IMG/VR virus record: IMGVR_UViG_2713897055_000006
DNA: 18,908 nucleotides
Direction: 5' to 3' (one strand)
DNA from: a virus
Taxonomy: Duplodnaviria > Heunggongvirae > Uroviricota > Caudoviricetes
A program made the position numbers. Positions 15,001-18,000 of this stretch are shown in pieces (within the stretch, counting starts at the first letter, position 1; each line of letters starts with the position of its first letter).

Positions 15001-18000
15001 GCGGATGTGCTCATGCCTGATTTTCATGAATCAACTCCGATGCATTTGGTGTGTTAGCCTTGAATCCAACAGGTAAGCCGTCGGTTGGATTCGGGTAAAT
15101 ATCAGGCCGGAGTTCATGAGGTGTAACCTCGAAATTCGTTACTTCAGCAACACGTAATGCTTTTTCAGGGCTGAATCTTTCATAGCCCCCCAGCACTCGA
15201 CTTACATGCACCTGAGATAAACCCGTTAGCTTCCCAAACTGTAGCTGGGTGATATGTTTCTCTTTTAAATAGTCTCTTAAGTTCATAGCCAACCTTCTAC
15301 GTTATGCCTCGAGCAAATATTAGTCCCGCTAATTTTAAAGATCAATAGCCAGACTATCTTTGATAATATTGGTAAAACAAATAAACTCTATGTATGAAAA
15401 AAAACACGCGAAGTGATTGCAACTCCAGAAGCGAGCAAGAATTTAAAAGCCGCATGGAATGCAAGAAAAAAAGAGCTGAAGCTGACTCAAGAGCTGGCGG
15501 CTGAGTTGTTGGGATTCGAATCTCAAGGCACCGTTAGCCAGTATCTGAACGGCAAGATACCGGTAAATACCGACGCTGCGCTAAAATTTGCGGCTCTGTT
15601 AAAGGTAAAACCAGAGGACATTCGAGAAGACCTTAAAGACTTAATGAATTATGTAAGATCATCAGATACTTATGATGATAACTTTTCAGGCAAAGGATGG
15701 AGGCTGGTCAATGAAGAACAGGCAGAGTTACTTAACCTCTTCGAGATTCTACCTGCGTCAGAAAAAGCCAAACTCCTTAACCAGCTACGTGGACTAAACA
15801 AGCTCTACGAGGAAGCCTTCGAGAACATGCTGGCACTAAAGAAACGTAACCAGTAGCCACCGCTCACTACCCCATCCACAACAAAAAAACCGACGTCTTA
15901 GTCGGTTTTTTTGTGCCATAACTTCTGCAAATCAGCTGTATAACTAATATTTTTCCCTTGAAAAAACATTTACATAGTTACCAAATCAAAAATATCATAC
16001 GCCATACTGTTGACTTAAAATATCCGCGTTACTAATATTTCTATCAAGAACAGCACGGCGCTGTAGGTTTTAGTTCCGCCACCCGGCGTTAAGGGGAAAT
16101 GAGGTCAGCATGGATACTATCGAGCTTGGCAACAACGAATCTCTGGTGTACGGCGTGTTTCCCAACCAGGACGGCACATTCACCGCGATGACGTATACCA
16201 AAAGCAAAACGTTTAAAACCGAAAATGGTGCCCGTCGCTGGCTGGAAAGAAACTCAGGTGAGTGATATGGATTTCGACACAATCATGGAAAAGGATTACG
16301 AAGAATACTTCGATGGTCTTGCCGAAGGCGAAGAAGCTCTCAGCTTCAGTGAATTTAAACAGGCGCTTTCCAGTTCGGGAAAATCTAACGGCTGATAAGC
16401 GAAACAGCACCGCGAGGAATCAGTATGCAGAAACGAGAACCCGTCATCATCGCGCCAGACTATACCGATGATGAACTTTATGAGTGGATGCGCCAGAAAA
16501 TTAATGCAGTGCAGGATCTGAAATGGGCCAATGAAGCCAGGACTAAGCAGGCTGAAAATCTGTCCGCTCTGGAGCAGGATATCACCAGGCTGGAAAAAGC
16601 AGCGGCATTAAGCATTGCCAGAATGGTTACATACCCACGTTAATAGCTAACCAACGAGGCTAATAATGGAATTTAAAGATTTACCAATGCCATTCCAGGA
16701 AATGGCAGCGAATGTGGTTCGCTCTCAACTGGCGACTCTTGACCTGAGTACTGTAGAAAAGGAAACCATCGATACTATATCCGGTAACGTGCGTCGTGCC
16801 TTTATAGGTCTGTATGAAGAGAAGCGCCTATTCGGCGGACAGAATTCGCCTGAAAACAAGAATCAAGCAAATGATGAGAAGCTGAAACACATTATCGCCT
16901 TACTTTTGGAAGACGCAAAACGTCTACAGCAACTGGAACCAAATGCAGGCACAGAGGCCCGCATTTGGATTGCCATGAAATCACTCAAATGTGAAAGCAG
17001 TGATTATTTCAAAACAACAATTAAAACTACTCAACTTTCGGGAGAGCTACTGAAGAAATTGCCATAAGAGCATGGTCTTTCTCTTGTTCTGCAAGATGAG
17101 CATTAATACCTGGTATGGTTTTTTCAAATTTATCTATCTGTTGAATAACAACTTCGCGGTATACGTTTGTTTTTGTACCACCAAGCGCAGCCGTTAATGC
17201 AGAAAGCATATTTAGTATCATATCAGTGCGATATGAAAGAATCCTGATAGCTTCATCTTGTTTTTCAATAATAGATTGCAGGGCCTCAATTTGCTTTTTA
17301 TCCATTTCACCCTCCTGAGGGTTGGTAATTAAGGAGTTCTCCACGGGTCAGGTGGAGTGCGTGCGCCGGACACGGGTGAGCATCCGGCACTGACAGTTTA
17401 CTGAAAGGATATGTCCCTGAAAAGTCAGGGCATAACGCGAAAGCGCACGGCGAAATTGGTCTCTCTGTACGGTGTCGTTAAATTTAGTTCGACCGTGCGC
17501 TTCCGGTTGTGGCAATCCGCGAAATGGCGCGGCGGTAAGTATGGCGGGGTTATTCCTTCCCCGCTGAGGACACCGGGTTGTCAGGTTGACCATACGCTTA
17601 AGTGACAACCCCGCTGCAACGCCCTCTGTTATCAATTTTCTGGTGACGTTTGGCGGTATCAGTTTTACTCCGTGACTGCTCTGCCGCCCTTTTTAAAGTG
17701 AATTTTGTGATGTGGTGAATGCGGCTGAGCGCACGCGGAACAGTTAAAACCAAAAACAGTGTTATGGGTGGATTCTCTGTATCCGGCGTTAATTGTTAAC
17801 TGGTTAACGTCACCTGGAGGCACCAGGCACTGCATCACAAAATTCATTGTTGAGGACGCGATAATGAAAACGTTATTACCAAACGTTAATACGTCTGAAG
17901 GTTGTTTTGAAATTGGTGTCACTATCAGTAACCCAGTATTTACTGAAGATGCCATTAACAAGAGAAAACAAGAACGGGAGCTATTAAATAAAATATGCAT

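Follow-up and report, generated by a model that had tools for sequence, protein, structure and literature searches.

The window (the whole stretch of DNA analysed, 18,908 nt) is the entire contig JNNK01000057.1 of the 2014 draft assembly GCA_000749525.1. On its plus strand lies the cI-equivalent repressor gene of a Rac/Qin-like lambdoid E. coli prophage, listed as an ORF of 147 aa that starts at GTG (15413..15856); the protein deposited for the contig, KFV26214.1, has the same form. Divergent from it is an intact cro-like gene of the YdaS/DicC family (15011..15286, minus strand), which matches Pfam YdaS_toxin and HTH_3 and is 100% identical to WP_001053425.1. The 107-bp intergenic region holds back-to-back promoter-like sites: a pRM-like sigma-70 promoter facing the repressor gene (TTGATA-N16-TAAACT, 15360..15387, plus strand) and a pR-like promoter of the cro-like ydaS/dicC gene (TTGATC-N17-TAATAT, 15317..15345, minus strand, found by pattern search), the latter overlapping a palindrome, ATTAGTCCCGCTAAT (15319-15333), that is a candidate operator. 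The YdaT (cII-like) gene (14601..15027, minus strand) is frame-split by a +1 insertion in the T-run at 14961-14966, which is T6 in the window and T5 in 31 of 31 relatives. After the repressor gene comes a bidirectional intrinsic terminator (15881..15914), recognized as an inverted repeat with a perfect 14-bp hairpin and A7 and T7 flanks, and then a pL-like promoter (TTGACT-N17-TAATAT, 16010..16038, plus strand), assigned from the promoter scan, the repeat described next and gene order to a ydfA-ydfB-ydfC-dicF-dicB operon that is the presumed repressor target. A 34-nt inverted similarity joins the pR-like region (15315-15348) to the pL-like region (16007-16040), and from its sequence this shared stretch may be operator-like. 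Both the DicF sRNA (17638..17689, plus strand; Rfam RF00039, 76.7 bits) and the cell-division inhibitor gene dicB (17864..18052, plus strand; PF05358) are intact, and the gene order matches dicA-ydfABC-dicF-dicB of Qin.

The deposited ORF corresponds to residues 7-153 of a native 153-aa protein, and in protein comparison it is 100% identical to native residues 2-153. The Pfam matches of the 153-aa protein are HTH_3 and HTH_31 only; it has no C-terminal S24 peptidase (LexA/cI-type cleavage) domain, and more distant relatives with PF00717 align to its HTH half alone, so that RecA-stimulated self-cleavage is not expected. The locus shares with that of DicA (Qin, E. coli K-12, b1570) the divergent dicC/ydaS-like gene and the downstream ydfA-ydfB-ydfC-dicF-dicB genes, and the two repressors are alike in length (~150 aa), in having no protease domain, and in a C-terminal helical region (38% over 42 aa, E 8e-6); a 99%-identical protein in the Rac-SA53 phage is annotated dicA. 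The N-terminal DNA-binding halves, however, are too diverged for BLASTP alignment, and the immunity type differs, the operators of the window being candidates only. The HTH of the window repressor is nearer to lambda cI, whose N-terminal domain is its best solved-structure relative, with residue 12 aligned to residue 13 at an E of only ~1e-3 to 1e-4; in that register MKKTRE corresponds to the STKKKP arm. This nearly identical register upholds the first-pass annotation on one point, that a version of the gene with seven A residues would encode an N-terminus resembling that of lambda CI. Also as in lambda, pR- and pRM-like promoters diverge and the pL-like promoter has a common operator-like sequence, whereas the LexA/S24-type C-terminal cleavage domain of cI is missing.

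By direct reading, the -35 hexamer TTGATA (15360-15365) and the -10 hexamer TAAACT (15382-15387) of the pRM-like promoter are 16 nt apart, as also found by the promoter scan, and six bases, CTATGT, separate the -10 from an ATG at 15394-15396 (plus strand). Directly 3' of this ATG is an A8 homopolymer (15397-15404, plus strand), which is A7 in nearly all relatives and whose additional A changes the reading frame downstream of the ATG. The ATG thus lies in frame +1 relative to the ORF that starts at GTG 15413-15415 and opens a 36-aa out-of-frame ORF, and a TGA at 15395-15397 closes the repressor frame just upstream. Neither start has a Shine-Dalgarno sequence, the anti-SD duplex reaching at best +0.1 kcal/mol at GTG 15413 and +1.6 kcal/mol at ATG 15394, as against -5.8 to -8.1 kcal/mol at the neighbouring ydaS, ydfA, ydfC-like and ydaT starts and -3.0 kcal/mol at the GTG start of the DnaT-like gene. 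Direct reading, the ORF list and the anti-SD scoring therefore bear out the original observation of an ATG out of frame with a repressor ORF that lacks a ribosome-binding site. When one A is deleted in silico, the product, MKKTREVIATPEASKNLKAAW..., is exactly RefSeq WP_000753626.1. An 8-codon ORF, MYEKKHAK (15390..15416, plus strand), begins at a further ATG, 15390, and its TGA (15414-15416) overlaps GTG 15413 in a GTGA arrangement; this ATG is specific to E. coli copies and is not kept in Enterobacter, Hafnia or Serratia.

In relatives, the RefSeq/GenBank CDS begins at the equivalent of ATG 15394 and encodes 153 aa, MKKTREVIATPE.... Homologues from Enterobacter, Hafnia and Serratia (58-93% identity) keep a basic N-terminal arm of the form M[KRS][KR][TK-]R..., and their starts sit 5-6 residues before the GTG-equivalent position (10 in one homologue, P0013). 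In these genera exactly 6 nt separate the -10 (TAAACT, TAAAAT or TAGAAT) from the ATG, and GTATG is invariant across the homologue DNA alignment. GTG 15413 itself is not conserved, being GAG in Hafnia and absent in Serratia. Other bases break the A-run in Enterobacter (AGAAAAA) and Serratia (AGCAAAA), while Hafnia has its own in-frame A7; the start codon is in frame with the repressor ORF in these distant homologues and in 181 complete-genome copies, but not in the window with its A8. The homologue comparison had been set beforehand as the test that could overturn ATG 15394 as the natural start, and it came out the opposite way, with the ATG kept and the GTG not kept; the claim is sustained further by the widely annotated 153-aa protein that A7 encodes and by the conserved promoter-ATG geometry and N-terminal extension.

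Since the -10 ends 6 nt upstream of the ATG, with the same spacing in homologues, the sequence indicates that repressor transcription most likely starts at the A of ATG 15394. Such a lambda cI-like leaderless layout, with the start codon 6 nt past the -10 as in the cI message, had been proposed for the window at the outset, and it agrees with experiments on counterpart repressors: dRNA-seq found the dicA, racR and ymfK transcripts leaderless (PMC4681348), primer extension did so for PracR3 of racR (PMC9638921), and for paaR2 the same was shown by 5' RACE and by protein sequencing, which gave the N-terminus MQKKE (PMC8630535). RacR (Rac) and PaaR2 (CP-933P) are repressors encoded opposite ydaS-ydaT, and the window has YdaS/YdaT neighbours as in their loci, but no toxin-antitoxin genes after its repressor. 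RacR has no detectable sequence similarity to the window repressor (E 26) and was rejected as a sequence relative; we treat it as a functional analogue only.

Across the 71 nt of 15365-15435, the window is one base longer than every one of the 181 copies found in 180 complete E. coli genomes; A8 is matched by none of these copies, and complete-genome copies read directly have A7. Phage Rac-SA53 also has A7, as do 48 of 49 IMG/VR contigs, the remaining one having A6. The exact A7 protein occurs on at least 1000 contigs and the 147-aa form on 4-8: of eight contigs with the 147-aa protein, two (L059 and L062) are contig-end truncations not counted as A8 support, and one (L063), with A5 and three other homopolymer contractions, was likewise left out. 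Outside the window, A8 was found only in four Logan assemblies (ERR15836476, ERR13669538, ERR13763603 and SRR20815032), so that, the window included, A8 sits on four haplotypes or more. A shorter A6 in this first run occurs on 6 contigs. The gene has a second A7 run (15466..15472, plus strand; KKK codons), normal in the window, in which an A6 frameshift allele occurs on at least 89 contigs, hybrid-quality complete genomes among them. ATG 15390 is the annotated start in the A6 alleles of both runs. Homopolymers are contracted in general on the contig with A5 and on the IMG/VR contig with A6, and both were marked as sequencing error. Greater variability than in the A8/A7 tract is seen at two non-coding runs, 15883 and 15906. 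Some genomes carry two copies of the immunity region, whose carriers include strains ABU 83972 and 042.

The extra A of the window is one of six +1 insertions in the contig (3896, 6872, 7368, 7693, 14961 and 15397), all in A/T runs and each splitting a gene; none of the other five was seen in any relative fetched (4-31 per site). Free of the extra base, those five runs would read, in order of position, T7, T7, T6, A6 and T5. The rate of +1 insertion climbs with run length, from ~2% of 5-runs through ~11% of 6-runs to ~23% of 7-runs. A mismatch-repair mutator was rejected as the source of the six, because private substitutions in the window are few (13) and about half of them are transversions.

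We take the native gene to have A7 and to start at ATG 15394, and think it fairly likely that A8 is a miscounted homopolymer in the 2014 draft assembly. The TTGATA-N16-TAAACT promoter most likely yields a leaderless mRNA that begins with the A of ATG 15394, and the product is the 153-aa protein with a basic N-terminal arm, a lambda-cI-like HTH and, lacking any protease domain, a C-terminal region like that of DicA. On this account one base, rather than biology, would lie behind the GTG start, the missing ribosome-binding site and the apparent need for slippage. A7 is the norm among relatives, the spacing of ATG and -10 is conserved, and the extra base is probably an artefact rather than a mutation because it is one of six gene-splitting A/T-run insertions of which five are unseen in relatives. 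Two observations speak against an artefact: A8 occurs on at least four haplotypes, with no further homopolymer anomaly over the 1-3.8 kb of the A8-bearing Logan contigs, and real frameshift alleles of the gene do persist, as the second-run A6 shows.

The recurrence of A8 in four Logan assemblies makes a genuine recurrent +1 mutation at the run plausible, and we give a real but lesser chance, rather below even, to A8 in the window being a true replication-slippage mutation at an A7 hot spot, which has left a prophage that is decaying or redundant with a null or strongly hypomorphic repressor. In that event, translation from the leaderless AUG would yield the 36-aa out-of-frame peptide, and whatever repressor activity there is would be either residual or the work of a further prophage with this immunity; the independent assemblies with their clean neighbourhoods, the other frameshift alleles (A6 in either run) and the duplicated immunity regions of some genomes are consistent with this. 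It fits less well with the five further indels of the contig, which come with no matching transition excess and whose density extrapolates to the order of at least a thousand frameshifts per genome, or with the intact state of dicB and DicF downstream and the absence of A8 from complete genomes; loss of dicA or racR is moreover lethal in K-12, according to the passage of PMC5992433 that cites the Baba essential list. The existence of A5, A6 and A8 variants, the repeated origin of A8, and the place of the tract in a leaderless gene, at codons 2-4, where every shift is fully inactivating, could also suggest a contingency switch, in which slippage among A7, A8 and A6 silences the repressor in a subpopulation and sets the rate of spontaneous prophage derepression. 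This we hold to be exceedingly improbable: tract-length variation is not frequent among isolates (0 of 181 complete-genome copies, 1 of 49 IMG/VR contigs, a few contigs against thousands), two of the variants, A5 and the A6 from IMG/VR, are on contigs that carry the marks of sequencing error, interruption of the tract in Enterobacter and Serratia makes it look like a by-product of Lys/Arg codons, and the non-coding runs vary more. A looser form of the idea, that the A7 after the leaderless AUG is a recurrent on/off mutation point, tolerated or selected, giving heritable and reversible derepression of a DicB/DicF prophage with leaky rescue by slippage of polymerase or ribosome that restores the wild-type protein, is in our view very unlikely.

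The first-pass annotation had further suggested that synthesis of the repressor may require slippage or a weak GTG start, and this found no support: the out-of-frame state is a rare allele found beside five other +1 homopolymer indels, and such dependence is no property of the repressor family. For the A8 form taken by itself, the geometry permits three routes to useful repressor, namely a start at GTG 15413 (perhaps by coupling to the stop of the 8-codon ORF that opens at ATG 15390), loss of one A by RNA polymerase, or a +1 slip of tRNA-Lys, the last two of which would restore exactly MKKTREV...; we regard any of these as most doubtful. In favour of slippage, the RNA-DNA hybrid has roughly the length of an A8 run. 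Precedents exist in the 8-9 A runs used by some bacterial IS elements and in human apoB, where A8 rescues roughly one-tenth of product (PMC1088944), but eight is the lower limit for efficient slippage by the host polymerase, and in published reporters of E. coli RNA polymerase on poly(A) up to A8 no deletion-type rescue was detectable (PMC6260861). In slippage-rescued systems (Thermus dnaX A9, Shigella mxiE, IS elements, endosymbiont poly(A)) an A-run likewise parts a start codon from an out-of-frame ORF, yet those runs are of at least 9 (some 8) and both run and frame layout are conserved among homologues, whereas here the out-of-frame arrangement is not conserved, the family run being an in-frame A7 in >99% of copies, and nothing points to programming. 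GTG 15413, besides lacking a Shine-Dalgarno sequence and conservation, would be crossed by ribosomes from the 5' AUG, and its product would be without six residues that appear to match the DNA-contacting N-terminal arm of lambda cI. ATG 15390 is upstream of the likely transcription start, has no Shine-Dalgarno sequence and is not conserved, and on these grounds we rejected both termination-reinitiation at the GTGA overlap and, as a designed feature, a geometrically possible -1 ribosomal frameshift from ATG 15390 on A_AAA_AAA (giving MYEKKTREV...).

If A8 is an assembly error, as we favour, its main weight is for annotation: KFV26214.1 (147 aa, GTG start) would be a truncated call due to one extra base, and with five more genes of the contig broken likewise, the assembly is to be treated as prone to homopolymer error. 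Should A8 and the second-run A6 instead prove genuine, nature would offer frameshifts of the repressor that could serve as probes of the tolerance of E. coli to loss of a dicA-like repressor. At the level of sequence, the widespread repressor family of E. coli, Enterobacter, Hafnia and Serratia shares the leaderless layout known for lambda cI, dicA, racR and paaR2, in which the ATG follows the -10 hexamer at a distance of exactly 6 nt and no Shine-Dalgarno sequence is present.

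Read directly, the start region of the repressor gene has a pRM-like promoter on the plus strand (-35 TTGATA, 15360-15365; -10 TAAACT, 15382-15387; 16-nt spacer; also returned by a promoter scan), then ATG 15394 six bases past the -10, a run of eight A residues at 15397-15404, and GTG 15413. These bases and positions agree with the first-pass annotation and confirm its observation that the ATG lies one base out of frame with the repressor. In the ORF list the repressor is a 147-aa ORF with a GTG start (15413..15856, +), its frame shut just upstream by TGA 15395-15397, and ATG 15394 yields only a 36-aa ORF in a different frame. 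Another ATG, at 15390, begins an ORF of eight codons whose stop (TGA 15414-15416) overlaps the GTG. No Shine-Dalgarno sequence precedes GTG 15413, as had been remarked: the best anti-SD duplex there scores +0.1 kcal/mol, compared with -5.8 to -8.1 kcal/mol at four neighbouring gene starts (ydaS, ydfA, ydfC-like and ydaT). The window is JNNK01000057.1 in full (18,908 bp; NCBI assembly GCA_000749525.1), and its repressor is deposited, under KFV26214.1, as the 147-aa protein starting at the GTG.

Relatives carry one A fewer. A 591-nt query around the gene gave 181 matches in 180 of 5,426 complete E. coli genomes, and all matches listed were 590 nt long; a 71-nt query centred on the A-run also gave 181 matches in complete E. 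coli genomes, none at ≥99%, so all 181 copies are one base shorter than the window. When the sequences are aligned directly, the gap falls within the A-run itself, A7 in relatives vs. A8 in the window. The Rac-SA53 phage likewise has A7, as do 48 of the 49 IMG/VR contigs matching the flanks (the other has A6). The relatives' CDS is annotated from the ATG equivalent as a 153-aa protein (WP_000753626.1; named dicA in Rac-SA53) beginning MKKTREVIATPEASKNLKAAW, exactly the N-terminus that had been reconstructed by supposing A7. In exact-protein records this protein was on at least 1000 contigs, the 147-aa form on 4-8.

The ATG is also conserved beyond E. coli. Homologues from Enterobacter, Hafnia and Serratia (58-93% identity) all have the N-terminus M[KRS][KR][TK-]R..., starting 5-6 residues before the GTG equivalent (10 in the homologous protein P0013); in their DNA GTATG is invariant, and the distance from the end of the -10 hexamer (TAAACT, TAAAAT or TAGAAT) to the ATG is always 6 nt. 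None of these homologues has ATG 15390. GTG 15413 is not conserved, being GAG in Hafnia and having no equivalent in Serratia; thus, where homologues starting at the GTG and lacking the ATG had been proposed as counter-evidence, we found the opposite. The A-run is broken in Enterobacter (AGAAAAA) and Serratia (AGCAAAA), and Hafnia has its own A7, in frame. The broken runs contradict a conserved slippery site and make the run a by-product of the Lys and Arg codons of the basic arm.

The repressor transcript is probably leaderless from ATG 15394, a start that we infer from a layout matching that of its functional counterparts dicA, racR, ymfK and paaR2. The mRNAs of dicA, racR and ymfK are leaderless in differential RNA-seq (PMC4681348, Fig. 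2); the transcript from PracR3, the strongest racR promoter, is leaderless by primer extension (PMC9638921); and for paaR2 of CP-933P, 5' RACE placed the start at its ATG and protein sequencing confirmed the N-terminus (PMC8630535). Together with the relatives' annotation and the conserved GTATG and -10 spacing, these counterparts support ATG 15394 as the natural leaderless start, as first suggested. The proposed likeness to lambda CI also held: the best solved relative of the repressor is the lambda cI N-terminal domain, with residue 12 aligned to residue 13, so the first six repressor residues correspond to the cI N-terminal arm. Pfam found an HTH_3 domain and no S24 peptidase domain. K-12 DicA resembles the repressor at the C-terminus (38% over 42 aa, E 8e-6), and no sequence similarity was seen to RacR. 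The repressor, itself uncharacterised, belongs to a known kind, the leaderless prophage repressors.

The extra A is one of six single-base insertions in the window relative to close relatives, every one in an A/T homopolymer: T8 for T7 at 3896-3903 and 6872-6879, T7 for T6 at 7368-7374, A7 for A6 at 7693-7699, T6 for T5 at 14961-14966, and A8 for A7 at 15397-15404. All six split reading frames: Q has one, a 367-aa HTH protein two, and a 216-aa hypothetical protein, YdaT and the repressor one apiece; DicB, YdaS and the DnaT-like gene remain intact. Excepting 15397, the insertions occurred in none of the fetched relatives (4-31 checked per site). Longer runs are hit more often (roughly 2% of 5-runs, 11% of 6-runs and 23% of 7-runs), and extrapolating the indel density would give frameshifts on the order of a thousand or more per genome. 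A mismatch-repair mutator fits poorly as the origin, given the substitutions private to the window, which number only 13 in 15.4 kb and include about as many transversions as transitions. The simplest reading, which we consider probable, is homopolymer over-calling in this 2014 draft assembly; we looked for a sequencing platform or genome paper for GCA_000749525.1 and found neither. That A8 is a rare loss-of-function allele seems rather unlikely to us, yet the same run length does recur. A search for exact matches to the 147-aa protein gave seven contigs besides the window, of which two are contig-end truncations and one has A5 with three further homopolymer contractions, which mark it as a sequencing error. 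A8 is present in four Logan assemblies, as the sole indel over 1-3.8 kb in three (ERR15836476, ERR13669538 and ERR13763603) and on a different phage backbone in SRR20815032. With the window these make at least four haplotypes, distinguished at 15324 and 15328, so A8 arose, or was mis-called, repeatedly. The contigs of this set were selected by the very frameshift they share, and the set is tiny beside thousands of A7 contigs. In the SRR20815032 contig, whose replication genes are of a different backbone, the pRM-like spacer is also one G short (equivalent to 15371; 15 nt vs. 16).

Other alleles bear on whether such a loss could be borne. Six contigs have A6 in the first run and are annotated from ATG 15390 as MYEKTREV... 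(154 aa); through the ATGTATG arrangement A6 and A7 both give an ATG-initiated full-length ORF, and A8 and A5 do not. The second run within the gene (A7, 15466-15472) is A6 in at least 89 contigs, complete genomes among them (e.g. LR890661.1), where annotation runs from ATG 15390 and gives 154 aa, the N-terminal 24 out of frame; this may be a real, widespread frameshift allele. Repressor frameshifts are thus tolerated in some strains, which weakens the argument from essentiality of dicA and racR in K-12, as stated in PMC5992433 (citing Baba et al.). Were A8 real, the 5' AUG would give the 36-aa out-of-frame peptide. Repressor could then come only from the SD-less, non-conserved GTG, without the arm-equivalent residues, unless RNA polymerase dropped one A or tRNA-Lys slipped by +1, either of which would restore the wild-type protein. 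In the E. coli RNA polymerase reporters of PMC6260861 (section 19), deletion-type rescue on poly(A) was undetectable up to A8, so rescue would be weak at best. The earlier suggestion that repressor synthesis may depend on a weak GTG start or on slippage found no support, and nothing indicates programmed slippage or recoding.

The window corresponds to the early region of an E. coli lambdoid prophage of the Rac/Qin kind. The minus strand has the Q antiterminator, RusA, hokD/sok, replication genes, YdaT (cII-like) and YdaS/DicC (cro-like); the plus strand runs from the repressor through a hairpin terminator and a pL-like promoter to ydfA, ydfB, ydfC, DicF sRNA (17638-17689; Rfam, 76.7 bits) and intact dicB (17864-18052). 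DicF and intact dicB follow the repressor as in Qin; identity of dicB to its ABU 83972 counterpart is just 90%. Opposing the pRM-like promoter is a pR-like one (TTGATC-N17-TAATAT, 15345..15317, -), with a 34-nt inverted similarity (71%) to the pL-like region 16007-16040, the pattern expected of shared operators, to which we tentatively assign operator function. Within the pR-like promoter the palindrome ATTAGTCCCGCTAAT (15319-15333) is a candidate operator, and its central spacer contains the polymorphic sites 15324 and 15328. After the repressor gene, a perfect hairpin of 14 bp between A7 and T7 (15881-15914) looks like a bidirectional terminator; the two runs beside it differ in length from relative to relative (A6-A9 and T7-T8), and do so more than the coding A-run. 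On the minus strand, a partial STnc100 sRNA match (1-114) is cut by the contig end, three tRNA genes cluster at 1524-1772, and the sok antisense RNA (8416-8591) adjoins hokD.
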